A stretch of 64,000 nucleotides of DNA from Gammaproteobacteria bacterium (lineage in GTDB: Bacteria > Pseudomonadota > Gammaproteobacteria > Eutrophobiales > Eutrophobiaceae): assembly GCA_965240365.1 (NCBI GenBank), contig OZ251218.1, forward strand, positions 3,022,378-3,086,377. Reading direction: 5' to 3'. Below the pieces are notes generated by a model that was not told where the DNA came from, ran no database searches, and was given only the letters and a program-made list of their open reading frames with translations. Shown here one piece after another: positions 1 through 63,140 of this stretch. Position numbers and translations under genes: made by a program. Position 1 is the first letter of the stretch. Each line of letters starts with the position of its first letter.

Positions 1-155
1 TGAATTATATAAAACACTGGATTCCGGCTTTCGCCTGCCTGCGGCAGGCAGGCTGGAATGATGAAATAGATGGGAATGCCGCCCGTTGCCATTGCACCGC
101 ACGCTTTCTGCATTCCCGCTTTCACGATAACAAGCGACCGCGTTAAAATACGGGC

Positions 156-839
156 ATGTTGAATCCTGATGCCGGCGCCTTGCGGGGCAATGATATGTTT
201 GACCCGGATTGCAGGGCCTGTCCGCGCTTGAGCCGTTATCTTGACGCGGTGAAGCTGCAATTTCCCGCCTATCACGCGCGGCCCGTGCCGGCATTTGGGG
301 CGCAAAAGCCCGGCTTGTTGATCGTCGGCCTCGCGCCCGGCCTGCATGGCGCCAATGCCACCGGCCGGCCCTTCACGGGCGATTATGCGGGTATTCTCCT
401 GTACCGGATGCTGTATAAATATGGTTTTAGCAGCCAGCCCGATTCCTCCGGCCCCGCTGACGGCCTGCGCCTGTTGCGATGCCGGATCACCAACGCGGTA
501 AAGTGTCTGCCGCCGCAGAACAAGCCGATCGGCAGCGAGGTCAACCGGTGTAATCCTTATCTTGCCGAAGAGCTTAAATATATTGCCAAAAAGGCGATTA
601 TCCTGTGCCTCGGCCAGATTTCGCACAGGGCGATCATCAAGGCGCTGCGCCTGAAACAAGCCGCGTATCCGTTTAAGCACGCCGCGCTTTATAAACTGGA
701 TGATGGCAGAGCCCTGGTTGATTCCTATCATTGCAGCCGCTATAACATGCACACCGGGCGTCTGACCGAGGCCATGTTTGAGGATATATTCAGGCTGCTC
801 AGAAAACGGCTGGGCCGCCGGGCGCGCCATGTCGTTTGA
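156..839 (+). CDS. Uracil-DNA glycosylase superfamily protein (family 4/5-like)
   Basis: GLAPG...GANATGRPFTGD motif and later H-containing motif typical of UDG superfamily; 227 aa; 3' end overlaps uvrC start by 11 nt. Confidence 0.5.
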   Translation: MLNPDAGALRGNDMFDPDCRACPRLSRYLDAVKLQFPAYHARPVPAFGAQKPGLLIVGLAPGLHGANATGRPFTGDYAGILLYRMLYKYGFSSQPDSSGPADGLRLLRCRITNAVKCLPPQNKPIGSEVNRCNPYLAEELKYIAKKAIILCLGQISHRAIIKALRLKQAAYPFKHAALYKLDDGRALVDSYHCSRYNMHTGRLTEAMFEDIFRLLRKRLGRRARHVV

Positions 840-2652
840 CCCCGCCGCCTTTGTCAAAAATCTGACGCCCCGCCCCGGCGTGTACTGCATGCAGAACGAG
901 GACGGCCAGGTTATCTATGTCGGCAAGGCAAAAAATCTGAAAAAGCGCGTGGCCAGTTATTTCAGCCGCGCCCAGGCCGATTCGCCCAAGACGCGGGTGA
1001 TGGTGAAACAGATCAGAAATATCGAGATCACGGTCACGCATACCGAGAACGAGGCGTTGATCCTGGAAAACAATCTGATAAAAGCCTATAAGCCCCGCTA
1101 CAATATCTATTTTCGTGACGACAAGAGTTACCCCTACCTTTATTTATCCACCGAGCACGGCTTCCCGCTGTTTCGCTATCATCGCGGCGCGCTCAAGGGC
1201 AAGGGCAGATATTTCGGCCCTTATCCAAGCTCGGGTTCTGTCCGGCAGACCCTGAACCTGCTGCAAAAGTTATTTCAGGTGCGTTCCTGTGAAGACAGCG
1301 TCTTTTCCAATCGTTCCAGGCCCTGTCTGCAATATCAAATCAAGCGCTGCTCCGCGCCCTGTGTGGATTATATTTCCAGGCAGGATTACGCGCGGGATAT
1401 CCGGCATGCGGTGTTGTTCCTGGAAGGCAGGAACGAGGCCGTGATCAAGGCCCTGACCCGGCCCATGCAGACCGCATCCGAGCGGCTTGAGTTTGAACTG
1501 GCGGCGCGCTTTCGTGATCAGATCCGCGCCTTGCGCGATATTCAGGAAAAACAGCACCGGGCGGCGGGCGGCGGCGATATGGATATTGTCTGTTGCGCCG
1601 TTGCCGGCAACCAGGCCTGTATTCAGCGGGTGTTCATCCGCGGCGGACTCAATCTCGGCAGCCGCAGTTATTTCCCGCAACATATCTCGGATCAGGCCGA
1701 GGCCGATTTAATCAGGGCCTTTTTAGGGCAGTATTATCTGGGCAAGGCGCGCCAGCATATTGCCGCCGAGATCATCATCAGCCATGATTTTGCCGGGCTT
1801 GAGTTAATGCAGGCGGTATTTAACGAGCATTTCAATAAAAAAATCAGGATCAAGACCCAGGTGCGCGGCGAACGCGCCCGCTGGCTCAAGCTGGCCGTGG
1901 ATAACGCCGCCTTGACGCTGACACAGCGGCTGGCGGCTAACCGGAACCAGCAAAGGCGTATCGCCGACCTGCAACAACTGTTGGGCATAAAAGACGACCT
2001 TGAGCAGATGGAATGTTTCGATATCAGCCACAGTCACGGCGAGGCCGTGACGGGGTCTTGCGTGGTCTTTGGCCGGGACGGGCCGGTCAATTCAAAATAC
2101 CGCCAGTTCAATATAGAAAATGTCACCAAAGGCGATGACTACGCGGCCATGAGCCAGGTCGTGCGCCGCCGTTATACCCGTCAGGTCAAGGAAAATGCAA
2201 GGCTGCCGGATTTGATTATTATAGATGGCGGCAAGGGCCAGATTGAAGTGGCCACGCGCGCGCTGAGCGAATTACAATTGCGGCATATCCCGGTGCTGGG
2301 CGTGGCCAAGGGGCCGGCCCGCAAAGCCGGGCTGGAAAAACTAATCCTGGCCTATGATAATAAAACGCTGAACTGCGGCGCGGATTCCCCGGCCTTGCAT
2401 TTAATACAACATATCCGCGATGAGGCGCACCGCTTTGCCATCAGCGCGCATCGTCAAAAACGCAAGAAAAAACGCGGCCGCTCAAGGCTGGAAGAGATAG
2501 CCGGCATCGGCCATAAACGCAGGCAAAACCTGATAAGACATTTCGGCGGATTGCAGGGCGTGGCCAAGGCCGGCGTTGACGATCTGGCCATGGCGCCCGG
2601 CATCAACAAAAGCCTCGCGGAAAAAATCTACGACGTATTCCATAACCATTAA
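829..2652 (+). CDS. uvrC: Excinuclease ABC subunit C (UvrC)
   Basis: N-terminal GIY-YIG (GVYCMQNEDGQVIYVGKAKNLKKRVASYF), UvrBC and C-terminal HhH; 607 aa from ATG at 829 (ORF track extends upstream to 778). Confidence 0.9.
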   Translation: MSFDPAAFVKNLTPRPGVYCMQNEDGQVIYVGKAKNLKKRVASYFSRAQADSPKTRVMVKQIRNIEITVTHTENEALILENNLIKAYKPRYNIYFRDDKSYPYLYLSTEHGFPLFRYHRGALKGKGRYFGPYPSSGSVRQTLNLLQKLFQVRSCEDSVFSNRSRPCLQYQIKRCSAPCVDYISRQDYARDIRHAVLFLEGRNEAVIKALTRPMQTASERLEFELAARFRDQIRALRDIQEKQHRAAGGGDMDIVCCAVAGNQACIQRVFIRGGLNLGSRSYFPQHISDQAEADLIRAFLGQYYLGKARQHIAAEIIISHDFAGLELMQAVFNEHFNKKIRIKTQVRGERARWLKLAVDNAALTLTQRLAANRNQQRRIADLQQLLGIKDDLEQMECFDISHSHGEAVTGSCVVFGRDGPVNSKYRQFNIENVTKGDDYAAMSQVVRRRYTRQVKENARLPDLIIIDGGKGQIEVATRALSELQLRHIPVLGVAKGPARKAGLEKLILAYDNKTLNCGADSPALHLIQHIRDEAHRFAISAHRQKRKKKRGRSRLEEIAGIGHKRRQNLIRHFGGLQGVAKAGVDDLAMAPGINKSLAEKIYDVFHNH

Positions 2653-3200
2653 TGACCATTCCCAACCAACTCACGCTGCTGCGAGTGGGCCTGATCCCGG
2701 TGTTCGTGCTGGTATTTTACCTGCCCTTTTCCTGGAATAATGAACTGGCCTGCGTCTTTTTTACCCTGGCCGCGTTGACTGACGTGCTGGATGGCTATCT
2801 GGCCAGAAAACTGGGGCAGGTCTCTTCCCTCGGCGCCTTTCTCGATCCCGTGGCCGACAAATTAATGATCGCCGTGGCCCTGGTGCTGCTGGTACAGCAA
2901 AACCCCAGTATCTATCTTGCCCTGCCCGCGGCGGTCATTATCGGGCGCGAAATCACGGTGTCGGCGCTGCGCGAGTGGATGGCCGCGGTGGGGGCGAGCA
3001 GCAGGGTGGCCGTCTCTGTCTGGGGCAAGGTCAAAACCATCGCCCAGATGGTCGCGCTCGGCTTTCTGATATTCCGTGAATCAATCCTGAATCTGCCGGT
3101 TTACACGATCGGCCTGATCCTGCTCTATATTGCCGCGATCCTGACGCTGATCTCCATGCTCCAATATCTGGCCAGCGCTTGGCCCAAACTGAAACAATAG
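2652..3200 (+). CDS. pgsA: CDP-diacylglycerol--glycerol-3-phosphate 3-phosphatidyltransferase
   Basis: CDP-alcohol phosphatidyltransferase motif DVLDGYLARK...GAFLDPVADK; conserved uvrC-pgsA-tRNAGly order of gammaproteobacteria. Confidence 0.85.
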   Translation: MTIPNQLTLLRVGLIPVFVLVFYLPFSWNNELACVFFTLAALTDVLDGYLARKLGQVSSLGAFLDPVADKLMIAVALVLLVQQNPSIYLALPAAVIIGREITVSALREWMAAVGASSRVAVSVWGKVKTIAQMVALGFLIFRESILNLPVYTIGLILLYIAAILTLISMLQYLASAWPKLKQ

Positions 3201-4983: not shown

Positions 4984-5971
4984 TATACCTCCTTTGTTGT
5001 AATTCCAGTAAGTGTCCGGGTTCAATACCCAGGGTCATCTCATCTAAAATAAGGTGTCAGTTATCCTAGCCACGGTATCTTTAAGTATTGCTCATAATGC
5101 GCCTATTGCCCCCACCGTCATTTATGGACAGGAAGTCCTGTATGCGGCGACCTGCCTGCTGCAGGCAGGGAGGGCACGCCTACAAGGATGTACGCCTACA
5201 GGGACGTAGGTGGTAGAGCGGCGTCTGGAACAAGCCGCCGAGGTGGTAGAGCGGCGCCTGCCTGCAGCAGTCCGGATGAGATGGCCACCTCTTGTTGCGC
5301 GGCGTCTGAAGCGCCAAAATGAAGTTTTTACTTAACCTAAATGCACAAAAGAGGTGTCCGAGATGAAAGTGACTCTAATTGGTATTGATTTGGCAAAGAC
5401 TATTTTTCAGGTATGTGGAGTGAATCAGGTCGGCAAGCCGGTGTTTAACCGGACGATACGGCGTGCGGGTCTGTTGTCCTTTGTGAGCCGTTACCCGGAT
5501 TCGGTAGCCTGCCTGCAGCAGGCAGGTGGCGATGGAGGCGTGCGGGGGGTCGAATTACTGGGGACGTGAGTTGCAGAAGCGGGGCTATGAGGTGAAGCTG
5601 ATTCCGCCGCAGCATGTGAAGCCGTTTGTAAACCTGCCTGCAGCAGGCAGGGGGGAACAAGACCGACCGTCATGATGCTCTGGCGATTTGTGAGGCGGCC
5701 GGTCGTCCTGAGTTGCGGTGTGTTATGCCTCGCAGTGTTGAGCAGACTGACCGGCTGCTGGCGCACCGGCTGCGCCCTGCCTGCAGCAGGCAGGGAGCAG
5801 GCCGTAGGCGGGCGTACCCGGTTGGTGAATCAAATTCGGGGGTTGTTGCGGGAGTATGGCGTGGTGGCCTGCCTGCAGCAGGCAGGTGGCCCGTCGCTAT
5901 CTCGGCATGCCGTGGGCCGAGTGGCAGGCGCTGGATGCGCGTATTGCGGAGTTGGAGGAAGATACTAGTAA

Positions 5972-7063
5972 TTGCATAAGTATTCGCAGTGCATTATAAT
6001 TTGCTGCCATGAGCACAAGAATTGAATTACGTAATCAGAAACGCAAAGATGTTGTTGAAGCAATCGTTATCCGCCAAGAACCTGTTCATTTAGTTCGGCG
6101 GATATACAACCTGCCGGAACGCACGGTTTTCGACTGGCTGTCACGTTATCGGGCCGGCGGATGGGATGCGCTCAAGGAGGGCAAGCGTAGCGGCCGCCCC
6201 AGAAAGCTCAGCGCTGAGGACATGCAGTGGGTTTATAAGGCGGTGACAATGGGCAACCCGATGCACTATCAGTTTGATTTTTGTCTTTGGACTCTGGGCG
6301 TGTTAGGCACCCTGATCAAGCAAGCACGCGGTGTCAAGCTGAGCAAGAGCGCCATTAGTCGCTTATTGAGGCATCTGGGGTTGAGCGCGCAACGTCCGGT
6401 CTACAAGTCGTATAAGCAAGACCCGAAGCAGGTCAAGCGCTATCTTTCCAAGACGTTTCCTGAGGCCGTGGCACAAGCGAAGGCGATGGGCGCGCAACTG
6501 TTCTTTGTTGATGAGGCTTCGGTACGTAGTGATGCGCACCGGGGCGCCACCTGGGGCAAGCGAGGCGAGACACCGGTTATCAGAGACAGCGGTGGACGTT
6601 TTGGGCTTAATATGATGAGTGCCATTTCTCCACGGGGGGAGATGCGTTTCAGTTTCATTGCGGGAGGTATGAACTCAAGCCGGTTTATCCAGTTTCTAAA
6701 AAAGCTCCATAAGGATGCCGGCAAGCCCATTTTGGTCATCGTTGATAACGCCAAATATCACTACAGTAAGGAAACACGGCGCTTCCTTAAGCAACAAGAC
6801 GGCCAGATTTTGCTGACTTTCCTGCCAGCGTACTCACCGGAACTCAATCCTGATGAACAGGTTTGGAATCATGCCAAACACCAACTCAGTCAACGCCCTG
6901 TCTGGGATAAACACGATATGAAAAGGCACTTGTCAGCTATTTTGCATTCTCTTCAGAAACGCACGGGCTTGATCATGAGCTTCTTCAAAATGAAAAATAC
7001 GAAATATATCCTGGAAGTCTTCATATGAACTGCGATTATTTATGCAAGGATTAATATTAAGGC
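5972..7063 (+). mobile_element. IS630-family element nested in IS110 copy 1
   Basis: Imperfect terminal inverted repeats ...ATTGCATAAGTATTCGCAGT / ACTGCGATTATTTATGCAAGG...; inserted at a TA dinucleotide present once in uninterrupted IS110 copy 2. Confidence 0.6.
6009..7028 (+). CDS. IS630-family transposase
   Basis: 339 aa; HTH N-terminus and DDE region (FFVDEASV...VIVDNAKYH...YSPELNPDE). Confidence 0.85.
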   Translation: MSTRIELRNQKRKDVVEAIVIRQEPVHLVRRIYNLPERTVFDWLSRYRAGGWDALKEGKRSGRPRKLSAEDMQWVYKAVTMGNPMHYQFDFCLWTLGVLGTLIKQARGVKLSKSAISRLLRHLGLSAQRPVYKSYKQDPKQVKRYLSKTFPEAVAQAKAMGAQLFFVDEASVRSDAHRGATWGKRGETPVIRDSGGRFGLNMMSAISPRGEMRFSFIAGGMNSSRFIQFLKKLHKDAGKPILVIVDNAKYHYSKETRRFLKQQDGQILLTFLPAYSPELNPDEQVWNHAKHQLSQRPVWDKHDMKRHLSAILHSLQKRTGLIMSFFKMKNTKYILEVFI

Positions 7064-7410
7064 TCAGGTCAAGCAGGATGAGTCGGCGCGGCGTCTGGCG
7101 GGTATCAAGGGGGTGGGCCACTGATTGCCAGTGCGGCCGCCTGCCTGCAGCAGGCAGGCCACTATGCGGCCAATCTGGGACTGGTGCCCAGAGAGCACTC
7201 CAGTGGCGGCCGCCAACGGCTGGGAGGGATTACCAAACAGGGTAACCAGTATCTGCGCCGCCTGCTCGTCCAGGGGGCCTGGTCGGTCTTGCGCTATGCC
7301 GACCGCAGTGAAGACCGGCTGTCACGTTGGGCCAGACAGGTCACCTGCCTGCTGCAGGCAGGTGGCTCGCATCGGCAAGCATAAGGCGGCGGTGGCCGTG
7401 GCCAACAAGC

Positions 7411-7429
7411 CCTGCCTGCTGCAGGCAGG
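7411..7429. repeat. 19-bp hairpin copy present in IS110 copy 1 only
   Basis: copy1 CAAG-CCCTGCCTGCTGCAGGCAGG-TGGCCCGC vs copy2 CAAAC-TGGCCCGC (44296 region). Confidence 0.8.
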
Positions 7430-7567
7430 TGGCCCGCATCATCTGGTCAATGCTGTATCACGGCGCCGAGTACCGGCCGGCTTGAGACACGCGCACCGGC
7501 CCGTTTGAGGCAGAAGTAGAACGTACCCACCATAGGTTGCGATGAAGATATGAAGTAACAGCTTAGA

Positions 7568-7670
7568 CCTGCCTGCAGCAGGCAGGCCGGCCCCTGAAAC
7601 GCTGACTTACCTGCCTGCAGCAGGCAGGCCGGCCCCTGAAACGCTGACTTACCTGCCTGCAGCAGGCAGG
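7568..7670 (+). repeat. Tandem array (2.5 x 42 bp) of hairpin + 23-bp spacer inside IS110 right end
   Basis: Unit CCTGCCTGCAGCAGGCAGGCCGGCCCCTGAAACGCTGACTTA repeated at 7568, 7610, 7652(partial); copy 2 has a single unit. Confidence 0.7.
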
Positions 7671-7887
7671 CCCGACTGGGCTGAAAAGCACGAAGGCACG
7701 ATAGAGCGACAGGGGCGCGGTTCTCATTGAGGCCCGGGGACAATGATTCCCCAACACAGAGGCCGGATAGTCGTATGCAGTCTTATTTTACCGTTATTGA
7801 ATAATCAGCTTGCAAACTACGAGGTGTACATATAGGCCGAAATAACAGAGCGGATTGCCGGCAGTCTGTTTTTCATATACTCCCCGC

Positions 7888-10715
<2,828 letters not shown>

Positions 10716-12505: not shown

Positions 12506-12506
12506 A

Positions 12507-22388: not shown

Positions 22389-23369
22389 TTGGGCTTCAAG
22401 ATGACAAGTTTAACCAGTTATTTCAATGATATAGATGATCCTCGTTCTGGCAACGCGCCGCGCCACAAGTTTTGCGATCTGATGACAATCCGTCTTTTGT
22501 GCGCCCTGTGTGGTGGGGAGACGGCGGTCGATATGGAAAATTTCGGCAATATGAAGGAGGATTTCTTACGGGAATTTCTCGAATTGCCCCATGGCGTACC
22601 TTGCCATGATGCGTATTCACAATTGTTCAGGTTGATGAAACCGGCGAGCTTCCAGACGTTTTTCGACAAGTTTCGCGCCGACTTCGCCGCCGGGCGTGGA
22701 GAGGAAGCAGCTATCGCGATTGACGGCAAAGAGATGCGGCGCCGCTTCGATAAGGCGATGGAACAGTCGAATCTAAACATGGTAACGGCCTTTGCGCATG
22801 GTGCGCGGCTGACCCTTGGGATCACTCAAAGCGCCAAGGGGGTGGTGAGATATTGGCCCCGCGTGAGTTGGTTGAGATGCTCGATATTCGTGGCATCACT
22901 ATCACCGCTGATGCGTTACATTGCCAGCGTGAGACCTGCGAATTGATCGTAGGGGAAGGGGGAGATTATTGCCTGCAACTCAAAGGCAACCAGGGCGATA
23001 TGCTGGCGGATGTACAGGCCTTTGTCAAAGATCAGAACATTGATTTCATTGATGAATATAAATCAACTGACGCGGATCATGGCCGTATCGAAGAGCGATC
23101 ATATCGCGTTTACGATGTCCCGAACTCTCTGGCCGAGAGGCACGATTGGCCGCACCTGCCTGCTGCAGGCAGGTCTGCAGGCCTTCGTTCAGGTCATCTC
23201 AAAACGTGAGGCAGGCGGCAAAACCAGCCACTCCGAGAGGCTGTATTTGATGTCAAAACGCCCCACAGCTCAACACGCCGCAACTCTAATCCGCGGCCAC
23301 TGGCAGATCGAAAACAGCTTGCACTGGTCGCTCGACGTTGTCATGGCCGATGACCATCACCGTGCCTGA
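22389..23369 (+). pseudogene. ISAs1-family transposase, frameshifted and hairpin-interrupted
   Basis: DIDDPRSGNAPRHKFCDLMTIRLLCALCGGE... (H-repeat/ISAs1 N-term) and ...HWQIENSLHWSLDVVMADD (C-term); frame change near 22850-22946 and 19-bp hairpin at 23155. Confidence 0.6.
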
Positions 23370-30456: not shown

Positions 30457-31387
30457 ACCAGCAAGAGCAACATTAGGATTGATTCCGAAAAATACCTGAT
30501 TAGGTGTTTTCATGCCAAGGCATTTTCGAGGTCGGTTATTTAATTTATCCATAGCCATTTTAATCTCCTGTTCAGTGATGGTGGTAAAGTCTCTGTTCCT
30601 GGGGAAGTATTGGCGTATCAGGCCGTTGGTATTTTCGTTGAGTCCGCGTTGCCAGGAGGCATAGGGGTGAGCGAAATAAAAGGTCGCATTGAGCGCTTTG
30701 GCAATGGCCTGATGGCGCGCAAACTCCCTGCCGTTGTCAGAAGTCAGGGTATGGACATTATCAGACAAGGGAGCAAGCTGTTGCAAAATAGCGGCCTTGA
30801 CCGTATCCGCTTCCTTGCTGGCGACCCTGGCAATCAACGTCAGGCGCGACTTACGCTCAGTCAGGGACACGAGGGCCTGTTTGTGCCCCTTGCCAATAAT
30901 CGTATCCAATTCCCAACCTGCCTGCTGCAGGCAGGTCACCCAATCGGGCACGTCTGTCGACGATGGCGGGTCGCTCATCAATGGAAACGCGGCCAGACCA
31001 CTGGCCACGGCGGCTAAAGTGACCGTAGCGCTTCCTGCGCCGCTTCTGGCAACGCAGGCGACGGTACAGGTCGCCGCCTTGCTGTTTGTCCCGCAGAATA
31101 TAGCGATAAATCCACTCATGGCTAATCCGAAGGCGCTTTTCCTGAGCCAGCCAGAGGCTGACCTGTTCCGGGCTCCAGTCCTCACGCAGCAAGGCTTCAA
31201 CCCAGTCCCAATGGCCGGGTTGAATGCGCACCTTAGCCTTTCCCTGCCGGCGGGTCACGGCCAGCCGTTCGGCCTGCTGCGGACGATAGCCGCAGAGGCC
31301 ACGGTTGCGCCTCAACTCACGGCTTATGGTGGATTTGTGAACCTCAAGGATACGGGCTGTCTCAGTTTGATTATGGCCTGCTTTCAT
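30454..31387 (-). pseudogene. IS30-family transposase (frameshifted)
   Basis: MKAGHNQTETARILEVHKSTISRELRRNRG... HTH, C-terminal ...LNENTNGLIRQYFPRNRDFTTITEQEIKMAMDKLNNRPRKCLGMKTPNQVF; two overlapping ORFs. Confidence 0.65.
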
Positions 31388-31558
31388 AAGGGCGCCTGCC
31401 TGCTGCAGGCAGGTAAATCGGGTATCGTTGCTCCTGGGTGAGCTGTGTGTATTGTCTCATCGATGCTTCTCATTCTTGCCAGAACAAAAAGCAGAGATAC
31501 TACCGCAGCTCGCCTCCTGTTCCGAGTTATGAGTTGCACTTACGAGTTGAATTCACGC
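30457..31558 (-). mobile_element. IS30-family element copy 1 inserted in paaK-like gene
   Basis: Imperfect terminal IRs GTGGATTCAACCAGCAAGAGCAAC... / ...GAGTTGCACTTACGAGTTGAATTCACG; transposase (30454..31387) frameshifted, 2 hairpin copies inside. Confidence 0.6.
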
Positions 31559-32325
31559 AATTTAATAGACGCAATAAAGCTGGTGTGCATGGCTCCGATA
31601 CCGTCATAGATGCGTGCTCCGCCCCAAAGAGCGGAGATACGGTTTCACACTTCGTCGATCGATCCGCCGGGTTCGCCTGCCAGAGAAATCCTCTCAAAAC
31701 CAAGACCTGCCGGATCGACCCCGTGTTTATCGCGCAATTCCTCGCCCATCCAGATGGCGTAGGACGGTGTGCAGTTCAATTGCTTGGGCCTTACCTGCCG
31801 TGCGACAACGGCGAAGTTCTCAGGCCCGCTCTTCCCACCGATCGGCACCACCGTTAATCCCGCATCCTGCATCACATCGGCCCCCGGCATGCCGGCAATC
31901 CACATCGACATGACGAAAGCGTGCATCACCTCCATGCACCGTTTCATAATCTCGGCGCTCAAAACACTGTCCCGGCGGGTATAGCCGGTGAATGTCGGTG
32001 TCCCGGTCGTGCCAGACGTCGAACTGATGTGCGTGACATCACGCGGATCGCACACAATGTGCATGCCTAGCGTATGCAGCCTCTTTTCCCAGGAAGCACG
32101 CTGGCTTTCGCGTTCAATGGATTTATCCATAAACGGCACCGCGCCAAGATCGCCGAAGCTTCGGATCATGTCGGGATGGATACCTGCATCGTCAAAACGT
32201 TTCCGATGGAAATCCGATTTTTCGTAAACAAGATTCAACTGGGTTTTCAACTTGGCGAACCTGTAGTCGTCAAGCCGGGGCCGATCCACGAAACCGCGTT
32301 CAGGGCTGTAAAACGGGCTGAGCAT
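31559..32325 (-). pseudogene. Phenylacetate-CoA ligase-like (PaaK family), N-terminal part with in-frame TGA
   Basis: ...HISSTSGTTGTPTFTGYTRRD...ISLAGEPGGSIDEV*NRISALWGGARIYDGIGAMHTSF then IS30 IR; TGA at 31645..31647. Confidence 0.6.
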
Positions 32326-32410: not shown

Positions 32411-33760
32411 TCATTGCTGTCCCATTAACAGGGAATAAAAAGGCCTGATTCCACTGAGATTGATATAATGAGTTTGCTAAAAAACGCTGTATCAATAAGG
32501 AGAATCAGGCCGTGGCACATTGTAATACGATTTTTTCACAAATACTAAAGTTTGTTCCGAGACATGAATTTGAATCTCTGGCGAAGCGGCATCACTTGGG
32601 TCGGGCGTTCCGGAAAACTTCGCGTTGGCCTGCCTGCTGCAGGCAGGTCGCAATTTGTGTGGATGGCGATGGCACAATTGTCTGGCCGAATCAGTCTGCG
32701 CGATATTGTGGACAATCTTTCGGCACAGGCCCATCGTTTGTATCATCCAGGCAGTTCGAAGCCATCACATTCTACCTTGGCACGTCTTAACGAAGAGAAG
32801 CCCCATGCGCTTTATGAAGCCCTGTTTGGGAAGTTACTGAGTCGCTGTCAATGTGTTGCTCCGGGGTATAATTTTCGCTTCAAGAATCCGCTGTATTCAT
32901 TGAATGCGTCGATGATTGACCTGTGTCTCGCGGTATTTCCATGGGCGGATTTTCGAACGAGCAAAGGCGCCATTAAGCTGCATATTGGTTTAAACCATCG
33001 GGGTTATTTACCGGAATTTGTGACGATTACGGAAGGGAAAACGCACGACCTGCCTGCAGCAGGCAGGTAAAATGGTCGGTAGGACATTGCAATTTCCAAA
33101 GGGCAGTATTGTGGCAGTGGACCGCGGTTACAATTACTACAGCTGGTATAAGCAACTGAATGCTAAAGGTATCTTTTTCGTAACCCGCTTGAAGTCGAAT
33201 GCGAAGGTGCGTGTTGTTGCGCGCCGACCTGCCTGCTGCAGGCAAGTGTGTGGTCAAGCAGAGGAATGTGACGAGTGACCAGACGATCAAATTCACGGGA
33301 GTGCGTGCCCAAAAGAGGTGTCCGATTGGATTACGTCGAATCGGTTACCGGGAGCCAGTAACGGGCAAACGTTACGTGTTTCTGACGAACAATTTCAAGC
33401 TGTCGGCACAGACGATAGCGGATATATATAAATCACGCTGGCAGGTTGAATTGTTTTATAAATGGGCCTGCCTGCTGCAGGCAGGTCAAGCAAAATTTGA
33501 AGATCAAGGCGTTTATGGGCACGAGTAAGAATGCGGTGTTGACCCAGATATGGATTGCAATGTGTGTTTACTTGTTGCTGGCGTATTTGAAGTTTCAATC
33601 AAAGGTAACGAGAAGCTTGCAACAAATTCTGCGATTGCTACAACTGAATTTGTTCGAGAAACGCGATCTGACCGCCTTGCTTAACGGTGACCCACCCCAG
33701 ACACGCTGGGAAACTGATCGTCAAATAACACTGCTATGAAAGTTAATGGGACAGCAGTGA
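32411..33760 (+). mobile_element. IS4-family element
   Basis: 18-bp terminal IRs CATTGCTGTCCCATTAAC (32411) / GTTAATGGGACAGCAGTG (33743); transposase carries 4 hairpin insertions. Confidence 0.65.
32512..33739 (+). pseudogene. IS4-family DDE transposase broken by four 19-bp hairpin insertions
   Basis: ...VAVDRGYNYYSWYKQLNAKGIFFVTRLK...YKSRWQVELFYKW...GTSKNAVLTQIWIAMCVYLLL; hairpins at 32629, 33049, 33228, 33467 each shift the frame. Confidence 0.65.
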
Positions 33761-33871
33761 CTAAAATTATAATAAATACGACGTCAATAAAAAATAATTG
33801 TGACATCAATGTCAAATTTGTCGACGGACACGGGAGGAAACAGAATGTCGCCGCGATTGAAAAAAGCCTTA

Positions 33872-34748
33872 GGGCGTAGACCTATAAACAAGTAACAGTT
33901 AAAATGGCGGCAAGATAAAAAACTCAGGAGGTTTCAATGTCTCTAAATTTCTGGTTAACGAAAGAGCAGTTCAAAAAAATCCAACCATTGCTACCGAACA
34001 AGCCGCGTGGCGTTGCCCGCGTGTGCGATAGACAAGTCTTGTCAGGCATCATCTATTGTCTTCAGCGGGGATATAGGTGGAGTGATGTTCCCGAGGAATA
34101 CGGCCCGGCCAAGACGCTCTACAATCGCTACAGGCGCTGGTCTGAGGCGGGTGTGTTCGAACGCATATTCAAGGCTTTAGCAGGTGAGGGCGCAGACTTC
34201 AGCACGCTGATGATTGACACGAGCCACATCAAAACCCACCGGATTGCCGCCAATGGTGTAAAAAAAACAACAGTCAGGGGCGAGCCATCGGCAAGACCAG
34301 GGGTGGCTTGAATTCCAAACTGCATCTGGTGTGCGATGGTCAGGGCCGCCCTGTCCATCTGCACCTGACGGCGGGCAACCGGGCTGACCTGCCTGCAGCA
34401 GGCAGGTATTACCCAGGCCCGTCACTGCCTTGAGGGTCATGTGCGTAAGGGCTGCACCGTTATTGCCGACCGTGGATACGATGCCAATCATCCCTGCCTG
34501 CTGCAGGCAGGTGCGTAACTGGCTGCTCAAGGCCGAAGCAACAGCCTGCATCCCACCCCGCAAAAACCGTAAGGTGCAGTTCGAATACGACACCGAGCTC
34601 TATAAAACACGCAACATCATTGAGCGCATGTTCAACCGCATCAGGGACTGGCGCCAGTTGTCCCTTCAAACCTTCCGATGTCCCGAGACGTTCCTCGCTG
34701 CCGCACAACTCGCTGCTATTGTGATCTGGTTATTATGAGTCTACGCCC
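33872..34748 (+). mobile_element. IS5-family (IS427/IS1031-type) element, copy A of tandem dimer (877 bp)
   Basis: IRs GGGCGTAGAC / GTCTACGCCC; orfA 33937..34311 + A8 slippery run + orfB; carries two hairpin copies (34388, 34493). Confidence 0.65.
34493..34511. repeat. 19-bp hairpin copy present in IS5 copy A only
   Basis: copy A AATCAT-CCCTGCCTGCTGCAGGCAGG-TGCGTAACT vs copy B AATCACC-TGCGTAACT. Confidence 0.8.
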
Positions 34749-34750
34749 TA

Positions 34751-35608
34751 GGGCGTAGACCTATAAACGGGTAATAGGTAGAATGACTGTAAGATAAAAA
34801 ACTCAGGAGGTTTCAATGTCTTTAAATTTCTGGCTGACGGAAGAACAGTTCAAAAAAATCCAACCATTGCTACCGAACAAGCCGCGTGGCGTTGCCCGCG
34901 TGTGCGATAGACAAGTCTTGTCAGGCATCATCTATTGTCTTCAGCGGGGATATAGGTGGAGCGATGTTTCCGAGGAATACGGCCCGGCCAAGACGCTCTA
35001 CAATCGCTACAGGCGCTGGTCTGAGGCGGGTGTGTTCGAACGCATATTCAAGGCTTTAGCAGGTGAGGGCGCAGACCTCAGCACGCTGATGATTGACACA
35101 AGCCACATCAAAACCCACCGGATTGCCGCCAATGGTGTAAAAAAAACAACAGTCAGGGGCGAGCCATCGGCAAGACCAGGGGCGGCTTGAATTCCAAACT
35201 GCATCTGGTGTGTGATGGTCAGGGCCGCCCTGTCCATCTGCACCTGACGGCGGGCAACCGGGCTGACCTGCCTGCAGCAGGCAGGTATTACCCAGGCCCG
35301 TCACTGCCTTGAGGGTCATGTTCGTAAGGGCTGCACCGTTATTGCCGACCGCGGATACGATGCCAATCACCTGCGTAACTGGTTACTCAAAGTCAAAGCA
35401 ACAGCCTGCATCCCACCCCGCAAAAACCGCAAAGTGCAGTTCGAATATGACACCGAGCTCTATAAAACACGCAACATCATTGAGCGCATGTTCAACCGCA
35501 TCAGGGACTGGCGCCAGTTGTCCCTTCGAACTTTCCGATGTCCCGAGACGTTCCTCGCTGCCGCACAACTCGCTGCTGTTGTGATCTGGTTATTATGAGT
35601 CTACGCCC
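34751..35608 (+). mobile_element. IS5-family (IS427/IS1031-type) element, copy B of tandem dimer (858 bp)
   Basis: Same IRs; separated from copy A by TA; 19 bp shorter than copy A because it lacks the second hairpin. Confidence 0.65.
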
Positions 35609-35691
35609 TAGTGAGCCCGCTGCTCTTGAGAGACCTCCGCGACTGCGCGTGCTCTAAATCCAGCACGATCTCTCAAACACACTAGGAGTTT

Positions 35692-36483: not shown

Positions 36484-36694
36484 TTTTGCGTCATGGACAA
36501 AATCACGCCGCTTCCATTTCGCTACCGTTGCGGGGTTCAGGTCTGCCTGCTGCAGGCAGGTTATAGCGCTTCGCCAATTTGGCTATGCTCTCTTGACTAT
36601 TTTGTATTGCTCGACGCACCACCTCAGTCGTTGTGGCGCTGCCGTGTAGTATTTGGCCCATAGCTCCTCCTTTGTTGGTATAGCAGAATAACTT

Positions 36695-42018: not shown

Positions 42019-42500
42019 GTGGATTCAACCAGCAAGTGCAACATTAGGATTGATTCGGAAGCTCTGAATAAATCCATCCTGGACTTACCTGCCTGCAGCA
42101 GGCAGAGCTTCAAAATCAATGACTTACGTCATTAATTTTGGCGGTACGTCCCTGTGCCGCAGGAAGCTCTGATTCAATCAGAGCTTCCGTTCCGAAAAAT
42201 ACCTGATTAGGTGTTTTCATGTCAAGGCATTTTCGGGGTCGGTTATTTAATTTATCCATAGCCATTTTAATCTCCTGTTCAGTGATGGTGGTAAAGTCTC
42301 TGTCCTTGGAGAAGTATTGGCGTATCAGGTCGTTGGTATTTTCGTTGAGTCCACCTGCCTGCAGCAGGCAGGCGTTGCCAGGAGGCATAGGCCTGCCCGC
42401 TGCAGGTGGGGGTGGGCGAAATAAAAGGTCGCATTGAGTGCTTTGGCAATGGTCTGATGGCGCGCAAACTCCCTCATGGACCCCGATGTGCTGGCCAAAC
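42019..42500 (-). pseudogene. IS30-family copy 2, 3' fragment with a 136-bp MITE-like insert
   Basis: IR GTGGATTCAACCAGCAAGTGCAAC; insert 42057..42192 bounded by GGAAGCTCTGA direct/inverted repeats; two extra hairpins at 42354 and 42392 absent from copy 1. Confidence 0.55.
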
Positions 42501-42789: not shown

Positions 42790-43268
42790 TCCTAAATTCT
42801 TACGTGAATTCAACTCGTAAGTGCAACTCATGACTCGGAACAGGAGGCGAGCTGCGTTAGTATCTCTGTTTTTTGTTCTGGCAAGAATGAGAAGCATTGA
42901 TGAGACAAAATACACACAGCTCACCCAGAGGAGCAACGATACCCGATTTACCTGCCTGCAGCAGGCAGGCGCCCTTATGAAAGCAGGTCATAATCAAACT
43001 GAGATAGCCCGTATTCTTGAGGTTCACAAATCCACTATAAGCCGTGAGTTGAGGCGCAACCGTGGCCTGCGCGGCTATCGTCCGCAGCAGACTGAACAGT
43101 TGGCCGTGACCCACCTGCCTGCATTGCCAGAAGCGGCGCAGGAAGCGCTGCGGTCCTTTAGCCGCCGTGGCCAGTGGTCTGGCCGCGTTTCCATTGATGA
43201 GCGACCCGCCATCGTCGACAGGCGTGCCCGATTGGGCGACCTGCCTGCAGCAGGCAGGATGAGATGGT
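42790..43268 (+). pseudogene. IS30-family copy 2, 5' fragment (opposite orientation), truncated by IS110
   Basis: MKAGHNQTEIARILEVHKSTISRELRRNRGLRGYRPQQTEQLAVT...; ~190-bp internal deletion replaced by half-hairpin (43113..43123); ends at hairpin 43250..43268 where IS110 copy 2 begins. Confidence 0.55.
43250..43268. repeat. 19-bp hairpin abutting IS110 copy 2 left end
   Basis: CCTGCCTGCAGCAGGCAGG|ATGAGATGG; the equivalent hairpin (mutated arm) abuts copy 1 at 5257..5275. Confidence 0.8.
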
Positions 43269-44665
43269 CACCTCTTGTTGCGCGGCGTCTGAAGCGCCAA
43301 AATGAAGTTTTTACTTAACCTAAATGCACAAAAGAGGTGTCCGAGATGAAAGTGACTCTAATTGGTATTGATTTGGCAAAGACTATTTTTCAAGTGTGTG
43401 GAGTGAATCAGGCCGGCAAGCCGGTGTTTAACCGGACGATACGGCGTGCGGGGGTTCGAATTACTGGGGACGTGAGTTGCAGAAGCGGGGCTATGAGGTG
43501 AAGCTGATTCCGCCGCAGCATGTGAAGCCGTTTGTAAACCTGCCTGCAGCAGGCAGGGGGGAACAAGACCGACCGTCATGATGCCCTGGCGATTTGTGAG
43601 GCGGCCGGTCGTCCTGAGTTGCGGTGTGTTATGCCTCGCAGTGTTGAGCAGACCGACCGGCTGCTGGCGCACCGGCTGCGCCCTGCCTGCAGCAGGCAGG
43701 GAGCAGGCCGTAGGCGGGCGTACCCGGTTGGTGAATCAAATGCGGGGGTTATTGCAGGAGTATGGCGTGGTGTTGCCCAGGGGAAGGGGGCGCTGGAAAC
43801 GGGCGCTGCCGGCCTTGCTGGAAGACGGTGAGCATGGCTTGACAGTTACCTGCCTGCAGCAGGCAGGGGGGCCGTCGCTATCTCGGCATGCCGTGGGCCG
43901 AGTGGCAGGCGCTGGATGTGCGTATTGCGGAGTTGGAGGAGGATATTAAGGCCTAGGTCAAGCAGGATGAGTCGGCGCGGCGTCTGACGGGCATCAAGGG
44001 GGTGGGGCCACTGATTGCCAGTGCGGCCGCCTGCCTGCAGCAGGCAGGCCACTATGCGGCCAATCTGGGACTGGTGCCCAGAGAGCACTCCAGTGGCGGC
44101 CGCCAACGGCTGGGAGGGATTACCAAACAGGGTAACCAGTATCTGCGCCGCCTGCTCGTCCAGGGGGCCTGGTCGGTCTTGCGCTATGCCGACCGCAGTG
44201 AAGACCGGCTGTCACGTTGAGCCAGACAGGTCACCTGCCTGCAGCAGGCAGGTGGCTCGCATCGGCAAGCATAAGGCGGCGGTGGCCGTGGCCAACAAAC
44301 TGGCCCGCATCATCTGGTCAATGCTGTATCACGGCGCCGAGTACCGGCCGGCCTGAGACACGCTCAGGCCCGTTTGAGACAGGAGTAGAACGTACCCACC
44401 ATAGGTTGCGATGAAGATATGAAGTAACATCTTAGACCTGCCTGCAGCAGGCAGGCCGGCCCCTGAAACGCTGGCTTACCCGACTGCAGCAGGCTTACCC
44501 GACTGGGCTGAAAAGCCCGAAGGCACGATAGAGCGACAGGGGCGCGGTTCTCATTGAGGCCCGGGGACAATGATTCCCCAACACAGAGGCCGGATAGTCG
44601 TATGCAGTCTTATTTTACCGTTACTGAATAATCAGCTTGCAAACTACGAGGTGTACATATAGGTC
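43269..44665 (+). mobile_element. IS110-family element copy 2 (transposase 43346..44340 disrupted)
   Basis: Left end ATGAGATGGTCACC directly after hairpin; same architecture as copy 1 but without IS630, with a different set of hairpins/deletions. Confidence 0.6.
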
Positions 44666-52067: not shown

Positions 52068-52071
52068 GCCT

Positions 52072-55013: not shown

Positions 55014-55199
55014 TGGAAATACCTTCCTTATTATTTTTCACACCCGACCGGCCGGGCCACCTCTCCGGCGACAGATATAAATTGAGATCGGTATGAAATG
55101 CAAGAAGAAATAGTAAAGTATTTGCGAAATCGGGGGGTGGCAGATAGGTGGGTCGGAATGATAGGGCGGCAGGAAGGCGTTAAAGGCTGCCGGGATTTA

Positions 55200-56110
55200 C
55201 CTATTGCCTACGCCGGAATGACGACGAAGGAGTAAATAACAGAGGGGGGTCTGAAAGATACCTGGCTATGCCCCCACCGTCATTCCAGCGAAAGCTCGCC
55301 TGCATGGATGCAGGTGGTAGAGCGGCGTCAGGAACAGGCCGCCGAGGAATCCAGTGGTTTATACAATCCATTCCCGCAAAGCCCTGCCTGCAGCAGGCAG
55401 GGGGAATGCCATTTTGACTGGTTTGGTACACGCAGACAGGGCCGGATTCTATTTCGCTCCCCGGCATCGCCTCCCTGGATTCCAGCTTTCGCTGGAATGA
55501 CGTCAGGGGCGGGAATGAAAGAGATGGAAGAGTACCTAAAAGGAGTGGCAAGAAACAAAAAGCCTCGTCATTCCGGCCTTCGCCGGAATGACGACGAGGG
55601 AATAAACAACAGAGGGGAGTCTGAAAGATACTTGGCTACGCCCCCACCGTCATTCCAGCGAAAGCTGGAATCCAGTGGTTTATACAATCCATTCCCGCAA
55701 AGCGGGAATGCCATTGTGGTTGGTTTGGTACAGGCAGACAGGGCCAGATTCTATTTCGCTCCCCGGCATCGCCTTCCTGGATTCCAGCTTTCGCTGGAAT
55801 GACGTCAGGGGCGGGAATGAAAGAGATGGAAGAGTACCTGAAAGGAGTGGCAAGAAACAAAAAGCCTCGTCATTCCGACCTTCGCCGGGCGGCTACGGGC
55901 ATCCTGCCCTCACGCCACATACAGGACATCCTGTCCATAAATGACGACGAGGGAGTAAACAACAGAGGGGGGTCTGAAAGATACCTGGCTACGCCTCCAC
56001 CGTCATTCCAGCGAAAGCTCGCCTGCATGGATGCAGGTGGTAGAGCGGCGTCAGGAACAGGCCGCCGAGGAATCCAGTGGTTTATACAATCCATTCCCGC
56101 AAGGCGGGAA
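55200..56110. repeat. Composite intergenic repeat array between fhcB and autotransporter
   Basis: Same unit families as 49560..50340, ~300-bp higher-order periodicity; one ATTCCC..GGGAAT hairpin carries the 19-bp palindrome in its loop (55383..55401). Confidence 0.7.
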
Positions 56111-61970: not shown

Positions 61971-62783
61971 TCATTTCCCAACATACAAAAGAATTTCGCC
62001 CCGGTTTAATTCAACGGCGTCGCCGCACCAGCGTTCGAAGCGGCCATCAAGCAGGCGTTCGCCGGTATGGATGCCAAGCGCGTTCAGGTAATGGCAGAAA
62101 TGCCTTAGAAAGGTGGGCCGGTATTGGCAACTGAGGCCGAAACTGGGCAGCATTTCGGCCTTGTTCAGGCAGATAATGGAGCCGCGCTTCATCCCGGCGC
62201 CGGCGCGAATGCCCATTTCACCCAGGACAATAATGGTGCCGGCCAGCATATTGACCCCGGTAAAATCGCCGCTGTTGCCGCCCACCACGATCAGGCCGCG
62301 GCGCATGACATGGCCGGTCTCGTTTTTGACATTGCCATGCACGATGATCTCGCCGCCCTGCATGCCCGCCGCGCTGCCGCGGTAGCCGCTGCCGGTCATG
62401 TGCCCGGCATTGCCCCGGACGGTGATCCGGCCGCCCTGCATCTCCGCCCCGAGCCAGTCTCCGGCGTTGCCCTCGACCACGATCTCGCCGCCGCGCATGA
62501 CCGCCCCGGTATGCAGCCCGACATCCCCCGCGATGGTTATTTGGCCGCAGGACATGGTTGCGCCGATATGCTTGACCGCGGACAGATCGCCGTCAATCTC
62601 GATATGGCCGTCAAAATGGCCCCGGCAATCGAAAAAATCGCCCAATTCAGCCTGACGGTTGCCATGCAGGACGGCGAGCCTGGCAATGGCCGGGTTATCC
62701 AGCGGCTTGAACCGGTCCGGGCAGATACAATCCGCTTCCAGCGGCGCCTCCGGCCTGGTATGCAGTTTGAGTTTCAGGGTCAT
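61971..62783 (-). CDS. Second, divergent FwdC/FhcC-like beta-helix protein
   Basis: 270 aa, GxxGxxxG repeats; ~35% identity by eye to fhcC at 50353. Confidence 0.7.
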   Translation of the reverse strand: MTLKLKLHTRPEAPLEADCICPDRFKPLDNPAIARLAVLHGNRQAELGDFFDCRGHFDGHIEIDGDLSAVKHIGATMSCGQITIAGDVGLHTGAVMRGGEIVVEGNAGDWLGAEMQGGRITVRGNAGHMTGSGYRGSAAGMQGGEIIVHGNVKNETGHVMRRGLIVVGGNSGDFTGVNMLAGTIIVLGEMGIRAGAGMKRGSIICLNKAEMLPSFGLSCQYRPTFLRHFCHYLNALGIHTGERLLDGRFERWCGDAVELNRGEILLYVGK

Positions 62784-62789
62784 GTCGTG

Positions 62790-63140
62790 GGTTTCAGGAT
62801 TTGGTTGATGACGGGTATTTTATTCTGTCTGGCACAGTACAGACAGACAGAACCGGGTTTCATTCCAATCCCCGGCATAGCCTTCCTGGATTCCAGCTTT
62901 CGCTGGACGGCTACGGGCATCCTGCCCTCTCGCCGCATACAGGACATCCTGTCCATAAATGACGACGGGGGTAGCAGGTGTATTCCGGCAATCTTCAATG
63001 TTATTGTCAACCGACCCGTTGTTCCAGCCCGCCGATGTTCTCACCAACCCGTCATTCCGGCGAAGGCCGGAATCCAGTGGTTTTTTTCAATACATTCCCG
63101 CGTAAGCCCTGCCTGCAGCAGGCAGGGGGAATGACAATTA
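62790..63140. repeat. Intergenic repeat array
   Basis: ATTCCCGCGTAAG[19-bp palindrome]GGGAATGAC at 63090..63135 plus GGAATCCAGTGG hairpins. Confidence 0.6.

Follow-up and report, generated by a model that had tools for sequence, protein, structure and literature searches.

Repetitive extragenic palindromes (REPs) of the REP/REPIN-RAYT type are short, G+C-rich hairpin repeats that occur in many copies in non-coding DNA, code for nothing, leave no target duplication and are presumed to be handled as single strands (PMC3116915, PMC3733652, PMC8266576). Those with a CGTC tag are found in several phyla and have no dedicated transposase (PMC3733652). In Haloquadratum, the PATE and SMR elements are transposase-free palindromes that leave no target duplication and can be very short (52-80 bp), SMRs lie preferentially in other mobile elements, and insertion sequences (ISs) of the IS605 type can shrink to 52-bp forms that consist of terminal palindromes only and still appear to move (PMC3119063). 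Here we describe an element that resembles both groups in these respects. It is the 19-mer CCTGCCTGC-A/T-GCAGGCAGG (exact-match pattern CCTGCCTGCWGCAGGCAGG), which we call E, and it was found in a stretch of 64,000 nucleotides from a gammaproteobacterium of the family Eutrophobiaceae (assembly GCA_965240365.1, contig OZ251218.1, positions 3,022,378 to 3,086,377), referred to below as the window. As judged from its sequence and sites, E appears to be a discrete non-autonomous mobile element, among the smallest so far recognisable. It has entered DNA repeatedly as exactly 19 bp, in this genome and in no fewer than five further bacterial lineages, and in the window it survives only in spare DNA, that is, in dead ISs, REP-type hairpins and spacers.

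We file E with the small transposase-free palindromic repeats, from the rest of which it differs in size, in being identical across phyla and in riddling transposase genes. Compared with REPs, it is at most half the size and is a perfect palindrome but for one base. It carries neither a GTAG nor a CGTC tag (only the copy at 5508 follows a GTAG), and its copies are singletons at irregular distances rather than inverted doublets as in REPINs, the sole array being a 42-bp direct tandem repeat. While REP families are lineage-specific and extragenic, E is identical across phyla and also lies inside transposase frames, in the window as well as at L045, L046, L056 and L060 (L numbers denote our E loci in other genomes and metagenomes). 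With the CGTC-tagged REPs it shares an occurrence in several phyla without a linked enzyme, and in the window these REPs are among its hosts. Relative to PATEs, E is about threefold shorter, forms a single hairpin and has no guide or target word, only a preference for the base at -1; moreover, PATEs and SMRs are archaeal and vary at the strain level, whereas E is bacterial and cross-phylum, with no related full-length IS found in the window or in 1.6 Mb of E-bearing loci. Miniature inverted-repeat transposable elements (MITEs) are non-autonomous as well, but they have a target duplication and the terminal inverted repeats of a parent IS. E has neither, and its arms match the ends of no IS copy in the window. 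The palindromic elements of Rickettsia also enter protein-coding genes, but they measure 100-150 bp and insert in frame.

Two further groups approach E in size. The small dispersed repeats SDR1-8 of Nostoc punctiforme and its relatives (21-27 nt), which Elhai and colleagues are said to have presented in Genome Research in 2008 as perhaps the smallest mobile elements, reportedly share with E the hairpin fold, precise, nested insertion in small repeats and mini-transposons, and the lack of a known enzyme. By that description they have other sequences and are confined to one cyanobacterial subgroup, whereas E is shorter, occurs in many phyla, has no cyanobacterium among the hosts seen, and riddles transposase genes here. 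Tiny G+C-rich hairpins, mostly of 18-80 nt, also lie in genes and spacers of organelles, where they include the GC clusters of yeast mitochondria, the 'byp' elements, the double-hairpin elements of Allomyces and the PstI palindromes of Neurospora; some contain PstI sites and some are accompanied by target duplications. They differ from E in sequence and in belonging to eukaryotic organelles, and while ribosomes skip byps, nothing suggests that E is bypassed. Our literature search found no paper that gives the sequence of E or describes such an element.

E is made up of a single central base between 9-bp arms, (CCTG)2C and G(CAGG)2, and contains a PstI site (CTGCAG). As the forms with central A and central T are reverse complements of each other, the central base marks the orientation of a copy. 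When single-stranded, E is computed to form a hairpin of -8 kcal/mol in which 8 bp make up the stem and 3 nt the loop. The pattern search returned 31 exact copies in the window and none in 100 dinucleotide shuffles, and a mismatch-tolerant search added seven near copies with a central G, one to three mismatches or a longer loop (Table 1), for a total of 38. These make up about one-third of the window's hairpins having a stem of at least 7 bp. The initial annotation had counted about 45 copies, which was too many (its own list held 39 entries); most of its coordinates stood, but five were off by 1 to 10 nt and have been moved from 5632 to 5633, 35277 to 35267, 36541 to 36542, 43113 to 43114 and 43250 to 43240. 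The 'half' copy at 43114 is the chance product of a deletion inside an IS30 fragment and not an element, and the loop at 61918-61940, given earlier as 6 nt, has 7 nt (CTTACAA). The latter copy belongs with variants from several phyla (L045, L046, L152, L226) that keep only the basal arms CCTGCCTG(C)/(G)CAGGCAGG around apical parts of 7-15 nt. At one site shared by the two IS110-like copies the central base differs, being T at 7344 and A at 44234, a swap that either a transversion or recombinational inversion of the segment between the arms could have caused. The flanks of E contain no T-run, as an intrinsic terminator would have, and an Rfam scan of the window returned two tRNAs only and no family for E.

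The discreteness of E rests on filled and empty sites and on reading frames. Where paralogous sites within the window are filled in one case and empty in the other, the filled site is longer by exactly 19 bp and no target bases are duplicated. Such empty counterparts exist for the copies at 34493 (in IS5), 7411 (IS110), 42354 and 42392 (IS30), and 55383, 63108 and 34 (REP), and at 55383 the boundaries of the insert are unambiguous (cattcccgcaaagc|E|gggaatg). We also deleted 19 bp in silico at each copy, re-called the open reading frames (ORFs) and scanned them with Pfam. The transposase frames recovered by this excision host about 24 of the 38 copies. They comprise ORFs of 399 aa spanning four E sites (DUF4372 and DDE_Tnp_1, IS4), 325 aa spanning two (HTH_38 and rve, IS30), 195 aa spanning four (DEDD_Tnp_IS110), 144 aa spanning three (Transposase_20) and 160 aa spanning two (DDE_Tnp_1, IS5). 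The initial annotation had described E as a discrete 19-bp insert without target duplication that is present in some paralogous IS copies and absent from others and that frameshifts its hosts. The filled and empty pairs bear out the first two statements (the second at 7411, 34493, 42354 and 42392), and the recovery of frames upon removal of exactly 19 bp per site bears out the third. Its junctions, C|G or C|TG, apply in the window (C|TG at 7411 and 34493; C|G at 55383, 63108 and 42354), but elsewhere the rule is R|B.

Some other ways of reading these inserts were considered. A unit offset by 1 nt (ACCTGCCTGCWGCAGGCAG, that is, A plus the first 18 nt) does fit 42354 and the terminal-base variants at 42088 and 36542, but it fails at 55383, 7411 and 34493. 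Translational bypass or frameshifting that would keep the E-bearing transposases functional is unlikely, given a +1 shift per insert and up to nine inserts in a gene, and the matching take-off and landing codons are absent. An adapter, linker or vector origin was rejected: E is not known to match a common adapter, the element occurs in isolates and on multiple sequencing platforms, and its removal restores frames.

We annotated the window with Pfam scans and tallied the copies per class of DNA. Defective IS DNA (10.5 kb) holds 32 copies, or 31 without the junction copy at 5257, which really lies just outside the left end of an IS110-like element; other non-coding DNA (9.2 kb) holds six, and there are none in the 40.5 kb of non-IS coding sequence or in the 3.8 kb of intact ISs (IS630-like, 6009-7028 and 15545-16642; IS5/IS1182-like, 14112-15461). 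According to the initial annotation, E is missing from intact genes and gathers in dead transposase genes, and both statements agree with these counts, with 31-32 of the 38 copies in defective IS DNA. After shared sites were collapsed, 21 independent events in 7.3 kb of unique defective IS DNA compared with six in the 9.2 kb of other non-coding DNA, a 4.4-fold higher density (Fisher p = 6.5e-4). Much of the claimed bias toward ISs may come from tolerance and hitch-hiking. Tolerance accounts for the absence of E from genes, though not fully for the excess over other non-coding DNA, part of which is probably constrained. The two IS110-like copies have at least six insert sites in common and different flanks. 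Because these sites are common by descent while the flanks differ, a riddled IS copy was presumably duplicated, or mobilised in trans, together with its inserts.

The IS110-like copies show several other features. Copy 1 contains an intact IS630-like element (5960-7050) with a 339-aa DDE_3 transposase and no E, which either is younger than most E insertions or has stayed free of E through selection for activity. Positions 7567-7672, which lie at the 3′ end of the same copy, form a perfect 42-bp tandem repeat (E plus 23 bp); copy 2 has a single 42-bp unit followed by a scrambled remnant. The left ends of both copies abut E (5257-5276 and 43240-43259), and the right flank of copy 2 (44663/44664), tcaggaacaggccgccgag, directly follows E in an uninterrupted GTAG-tagged repeat of a relative (L107, position 8552; ENA ERZ25067561 ctg50782). 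It appears that the IS110-like element inserts at the edge of E, as IS621 does at REPs, or that exchange between E copies swapped flanks. Among the E loci compared, adjacency to IS110 was seen in the window only.

The initial annotation missed that E extends beyond this genome: bacteria of many phyla carry the identical 19-mer, and its presence is polymorphic there. We scanned 185,579 species-representative genomes for the exact 19-mer and found it at no fewer than 106 genome loci, in addition to at least 120 metagenome loci (at least 226 together); by our own rough estimate, about 4-30 would be expected by chance in the whole genome collection. The hosts include Bacteroidota (among them isolates of Algoriphagus, Belliella, Pedobacter, Robertkochia and Perlabentimonas) and members of the Desulfobacterota, Brocadiaceae, Acidobacteriota, Ignavibacteriota, Latescibacterota, Dehalococcoidia, Nitrospirales, Gammaproteobacteria and others. 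Viral contigs yielded seven loci with centre W and six with centre S, as against 1, 3 and 0 for control palindromes of like composition. The flanks of E in other genomes are unrelated and often AT-rich. When the two flanks of each copy were joined and the joined sequence was searched, we obtained 28 filled/empty matches at about 20 distinct filled sites, the difference always being exactly 19 bp. These came from Gammaproteobacteria (MC-11 and Thiotrichaceae), Desulfobacteraceae, Latescibacterota, Bacteroidota, Brocadiaceae, viral contigs and L107.

Most copies elsewhere look intergenic and often lie inside REP-type hairpins. An ORF of at least 110 aa that spans the cured site was present at only 50 of 245 loci, leaving 195 (about 80%) without one. 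Four of six long E-spanning ORFs tested are mobile-element genes: a DDE_Tnp_1_4 transposase (L045, Latescibacterota; E-value 1e-135), an IS256-type gene with three copies of E (L046, Latescibacterota), a DDE_Tnp_1_6 gene (L056, Bacteroidota) and a tyrosine recombinase (L060, Desulfobacteraceae). In metagenome-assembled genomes (MAGs) of Desulfobacteraceae (L009, L026, L027, L041, L061, L073, L088 and L104), a single repeat family carries E in varied flank pairings, including a perfectly palindromic flank-E-flank′ form; these combinations suggest exchange or template switching at E. At two loci of the Algoriphagus type (L008, 3150-3260; L103, 240-340), E sits at the stem-loop junction of the T-arm in a tRNA 3′ remnant (gcggg^ttcgattcccgc...cca). 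Small GIY-YIG ORFs lie alongside, and neither locus yields a prediction of a complete tRNA, even after removal of E. The relative L107 consists of 22 kb around ligA, with a LigA 98% identical to that of the window, and contains one exact W-centred E, two exact S-centred ones and about eight degenerate copies. Its synteny with the window is limited to 7855-13352 (about 5.5 kb), a segment without an E site to compare. The burst that gave rise to the perfect copies in the lineage of the window may thus be recent.

The flanks were examined with sites oriented to centre T. At position -1, the 221 unique sites from other genomes have G in 69% of cases, A in 19%, C in 9% and T in 3%; A is avoided at +1 (6%), and the remaining positions from -20 to +20 carry no information. 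The preference for G was replicated in independent collections (71% in the genome set and 67% in the metagenome set), and the asymmetry between -1 and the complement of +1 is significant in both (p = 1e-5 and 9e-5). Since the preferred G is already present in empty sites, it is part of the target. The central base is the only asymmetry of E, and a double-stranded insert would give no correlation with the flank; we infer from this that one defined strand is inserted. At 26 window sites, information is likewise limited to -1 and +1, and +1 is T in 73% and never A. At 20% of sites, compared with 4.5% of random control positions, E went into or beside the loop of a hairpin with a stem of at least 6 bp; for stems of at least 8 bp the values are 7.3% and 0.7%, so that the overall preference is 4-10-fold. 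The hairpins that host E include CGTC-tagged REPs (cgtcATTCCNGC-loop-GCNGGAATcca) and the T-arm of the tRNA 3′ remnant. The strand polarity and the loop preference lend support to the idea, raised in the initial annotation, of a mechanism based on single-stranded hairpins.

CGTC REP arrays (cgtcATTCCNGC-GAAA-GCNGGAATcca) occupy 49600-50350, 55150-56110, 61660-61890 and 62820-63100 of the window and agree with the description given by Di Nocera et al. 2013 (PMC3733652). The same hairpin family hosts E in Ignavibacteriota and other phyla (L022, L082, L127, L221 and L231). A second small nested insert, of 49 bp (cgcctgcatggatgcaggtGGTAGagcggcgtcaggaacaggccgccgag), is found at 55290-55340 and 56018-56068, with an empty counterpart at about 55660; with its GTAG tag and two hairpins, it is nested in a CGTC REP hairpin. 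In L107 (8527-8600) the 49-bp element itself carries E, which makes three levels of nesting.

The explanation that we favour, with a probability of about one half, is that E is a non-autonomous single-stranded hairpin element moved in trans, for which an HUH/Y1-type enzyme is the candidate driver. E would move as one defined strand folded into its 8-bp stem and 3-nt loop and would enter DNA that is transiently single-stranded, in the loops or at the stem-loop junctions of extruded hairpins. The insertion point would lie just 3′ of a purine, mostly G, on the T-strand, with A avoided just 3′ of E. The enzyme would be supplied in trans and, speculatively, might be a single-strand nickase-ligase of the HUH/Y1 class (IS200/IS605 or RAYT kind), whose chemistry comes nearest to what is seen of E, or a functionally similar one; the identity of E across phyla could then reflect, again speculatively, carriage of that enzyme on broad-host-range mobile DNA or a conserved host function. 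E would persist only where a frameshift is harmless, and defective ISs mobilised in trans would have multiplied the inserts they carried, which together with tolerance would produce most of the IS enrichment. A bolder version makes E a self-contained 19-nt mobile hairpin, the smallest transposable DNA known, a hyper-parasite that preferentially enters transposons and REPs in at least six phyla and their phages, is driven by a conserved enzyme so far not associated with transposition or by a broadly shared mobile-element enzyme, and progressively kills transposase genes; this we regard as tentative and on balance doubtful.

A number of observations weigh against the favoured explanation. Y1 enzymes need a target or cleavage word of 4-5 nt plus guides, and E, with one preferred base and no room for guides, is too weak a match; REP/RAYT pairs are lineage-specific, unlike E. 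Among the 67 window ORFs scanned (four of them without any family match), we found none for an HUH, Y1, RAYT or reverse-transcriptase protein, in line with the earlier statement that the window has no transposase of the REP/RAYT or IS200/IS605 type. All-against-all clustering of the ORFs at 106 and then about 245 loci revealed no family that recurs within 1.5 kb of E, unrelated housekeeping genes aside. With IS608 TnpA and E. coli RAYT sequences as probes and Pfam verification of the matches, Y1_Tnp ORFs were found at three of about 245 loci. Each of these ORFs has a REP of its own at its flanks that differs from E, and at L021, the closest case, E has simply inserted into the REP that belongs to the RAYT gene. 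Between about 70 and 80% of insertion sites have no obvious hairpin, and the flank preference is not the same everywhere, being T at +1 in the window and G at -1 elsewhere. Four filled/empty pairs in coding sequence (7411, 34493, 42354 and L056) have a substitution within 2 nt of the junction, while REP-hosted pairs have identical flanks. The swap of the central base in place weakens orientation arguments for any single site, and mobility is read from polymorphism, in which insertion and excision look alike. The membership in REP/RAYT or IS200/IS605 that had been considered compatible with E is not supported, as E lacks a GTAG or CGTC tag, a conserved 4-5-nt target, doublets and, at the loci scanned, a linked Y1 gene.

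Rather than moving by itself, E could be what remains of a larger element that makes no target duplication (IS605 or IS110 type) and was lost by imprecise excision or by recombination between its two identical terminal palindromes, leaving one 19-bp palindrome much as a solo long terminal repeat is left. There is precedent in Haloquadratum, where deletion between 19-22-bp repeats resembling the terminal palindromes has reduced an IS605-type element of 1500 bp to a terminal-only form of 52 bp (PMC3119063). A family with the same basal arms and apical parts of 7-15 nt (61918, L045, L046, L152 and L226) would fit such an origin, as would the abutment of E on the left end of IS110-like elements in two contexts (5257|5276 and 43240|43259), one of these E sites being present also in a paralogous IS30 without IS110. 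The parent, however, was not found in 1.6 Mb of E-bearing DNA, in which neither a pair of E copies nor a pair of half-arms brackets a coding segment, and no full-length IS with shared sub-terminal palindromes and TnpA/TnpB was seen there or in the window. No transposase family recurs beside E at the loci compared, the target sites lack IS110-like specificity, and four sites in 1.2 kb or nine in 1.4 kb would require many independent visits followed by clean losses; we consider this origin unlikely. E could instead serve a site-specific recombinase as its core site, in which inverted arms of 6 bp enclose a 7-bp overlap (TGCWGCA), and could spread and rearrange DNA through that enzyme or through RecA-independent exchange between copies. 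At 43240, E connects an IS30 fragment with an IS110 that has a different repeat on its other side, the product expected of exchange between two E copies; flanks are reshuffled in Desulfobacteraceae up to a palindromic X-E-X′ product, a 75-bp deletion ends at E (5868), a tandem array is built on E, and E lies inside a tyrosine-recombinase gene (L060). Yet recombination between existing sites could not put E into an empty site that contains no part of it, as is the case for the counterparts of about 20 filled sites; the binding arms of known recombinases are longer than 6-9 bp, and a 19-bp double-stranded circle is infeasible as an intermediate. With no recombinase gene linked to E and no unexplained one among the window ORFs in family scans, this reading seems quite improbable to us.

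We hold it to be equally improbable that E is copied through RNA, with a small hairpin RNA or a stretch of transcript as the template of a reverse transcriptase and the 19-nt product patched into DNA, a route that Elhai and colleagues are said to have proposed in 2008 for the 21-27-nt repeats of Nostoc. The strand polarity would fit any single-strand intermediate, RNA included, and nesting in small repeats and mobile elements is reminiscent of those repeats. But the window scans gave no reverse transcriptase, nor is one enriched around E, the Rfam matches in the window are two tRNAs only, no template locus was found, and no reverse-transcript mechanism is known to paste 19 nt cleanly, without added or lost bases. 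The 4.4-fold density of independent insertions in dead ISs, the six IS families affected within one window, and the transposase or integrase genes struck in Latescibacterota, Bacteroidota and Desulfobacteraceae might point to a host defence, a dedicated system that writes a frameshifting hairpin into transposase genes with an outcome like that of repeat-induced point mutation in fungi. Tolerance and hitch-hiking explain most of this bias, however, and elsewhere 195 of 245 copies have no long spanning ORF, only four of the six spanning ORFs tested being mobile-element genes. Intact IS630 and IS5/IS1182 elements are untouched, one IS630 even having inserted into a riddled IS110, and no candidate system was found, which makes defence very improbable. 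That E does not move at all, and arises by local slippage or template switching at quasi-palindromes or as a sequencing or assembly artefact, we give almost no credence. Palindromes are prone to template switching, and the flip of the centre between 7344 and 44234 would suit it, but local processes copy local sequence and cannot yield one and the same 19-mer amid flanks that are unrelated and include AT-rich spacers of Bacteroidota. E also occurs in isolates and MAGs from several assemblers and read types, only removal of exactly 19 bp restores frames, and shuffled sequences give no copies.

Table 1. Copies of E and their host elements in the window (positions are those of the window)
Feature	Position	Strand	Remarks
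IS110-like copy 1	5276..7836	+	DEDD_Tnp_IS110 + Transposase_20; 10 E copies; IS630-like insertion at about 5960-7050
IS110-like copy 2	43259..44663	+	6 E copies
IS30-like copy 1	30458..31560	-	325-aa ORF after removal of 2 copies
IS4-like element	32464..33736	+	399-aa ORF after removal of 4 copies
Two adjacent IS5-like copies, 94% identical	33866..35611	+	
E, centre G, inside CGTC-type REP hairpin	34..52	.	Empty REP at 50256-50287
E exact, centre T, non-IS non-coding DNA	5151..5169	+	
Degenerate E (2 mismatches), abuts left end of IS110-like copy 1	5257..5275	-	
E exact, in transposase frame of IS110-like copy 1	5508..5526	-	Removal helps frame restoration
E exact, IS110-like copy 1	5633..5651	-	Site common with 43539 of copy 2
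E exact, IS110-like copy 1	5776..5794	-	Site common with 43682 of copy 2
E exact, beside 75-bp deletion	5868..5886	-	Deletion relative to IS110-like copy 2 (43849)
E exact, IS110-like copy 1	7140..7158	-	Site common with 44030 of copy 2
E, centre T	7344..7362	+	Copy 2 counterpart (44234) has centre A
E only in IS110-like copy 1 (filled)	7411..7429	+	Empty in copy 2 within 44285-44316
Three exact E (7568, 7610, 7652)	7568..7670	-	42-bp tandem repeat, 2.5 units
E exact, ISAs1/IS4-like transposase fragment	23155..23173	+	DDE_Tnp_1
E exact, IS30-like copy 1	30917..30935	+	Site common with 43240
E exact, IS30-like copy 1	31395..31413	+	Site common with 42951
E exact, IS4-like transposase	32629..32647	+	One of four removed for the 399-aa ORF
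E exact, IS4-like transposase	33049..33067	-	
E, 1 mismatch, IS4-like transposase	33228..33246	+	
E exact, IS4-like transposase	33467..33485	+	
E exact, IS5-like copy A	34388..34406	-	Site common with 35267 of copy B
E only in IS5-like copy A (filled)	34493..34511	+	Empty in copy B within 35356-35387
E exact, IS5-like copy B	35267..35285	-	
E, 1 mismatch (first base T not C), IS481/IS3-like gene	36542..36560	+	
E, 1 mismatch (last base A not G)	42088..42106	-	L107 has a different 37-nt hairpin there
E only in IS30-like fragment (filled)	42354..42372	-	Empty in IS30-like copy 1, 30631-30662
Degenerate E (3 mismatches), filled site	42392..42410	+	Empty within 30652-30681
E exact, reversed IS30-like fragment	42951..42969	-	
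E at junction of IS30-like fragment and left end of IS110-like copy 2	43240..43258	-	
E exact, IS110-like copy 2	43539..43557	-	
E exact, IS110-like copy 2	43682..43700	-	
E exact, IS110-like copy 2	43849..43867	-	
E exact, IS110-like copy 2	44030..44048	-	
E, centre A, IS110-like copy 2	44234..44252	-	Copy 1 counterpart (7344) has centre T
E exact, 3′ non-coding part of IS110-like copy 2	44437..44455	-	
E in REP hairpin cattcccgcaaagc^gggaatg (filled)	55383..55401	-	Empty paralogues 55688-55719, 61861-61892
E-family variant, same 8-bp arms, 7-nt loop CTTACAA	61918..61940	.	
E in REP hairpin between two fhc-paralogue genes	63108..63126	-	Empty paralogue 49883-49914

Other features of the window deserve mention. 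A PARIS-like defence pair (16675-18865) consists of AriB (DUF4435, PADLOC 7.7e-12) beside an AriA-type ATPase that is split into two ORFs (17492-18256 and 18260-18865), and it lies in an AT-rich island (16-20 kb, G+C 0.45) flanked by IS630-like and IS5/IS1182-like elements. The region 56116-61092 has a G+C content of 66-68% and long internal direct repeats, in units of about 350-700 bp that are 78-94% identical; it contains an ORF of 1658 aa on one strand and one of 945 aa on the other, neither with a Pfam match. Two paralogous fhc pairs, each a GXGXG-motif subunit with the formyltransferase FTR, are located at 50353-52172 and 61971-63987, and the copy of E at 63108 lies in the spacer of the second. 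In the DctM gene of a tripartite ATP-independent periplasmic (TRAP) transporter (38893-40234), a frameshift has produced two overlapping ORFs with no E involved; therefore, not every pseudogene of the window is due to the hairpin.

If a 19-nt hairpin without flanking signals does move precisely, it would be a minimal transposition substrate far below those of the MITE, REPIN and PATE models, and some enzyme would have to recognise little beyond a stem of 8-9 bp. The identity of E from Gammaproteobacteria to Bacteroidota, Planctomycetota, Desulfobacterota and Latescibacterota points to a very widely shared enzyme or to efficient horizontal spread, and now that the exact sequence (CCTGCCTGCNGCAGGCAGG) is known, the driver could be named by phylogenetic profiling. 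For the genomes that carry it, E is a previously unrecognised cause of transposase pseudogenes and of the spurious peptides LPAAGR, CLQQAG and PACCRQ, a marker of recent genome change that could be used to tell strains apart, and a probable hotspot for IS110 insertion and rearrangements. More generally, it bears on how transposons are eroded by genomes or by other selfish elements.

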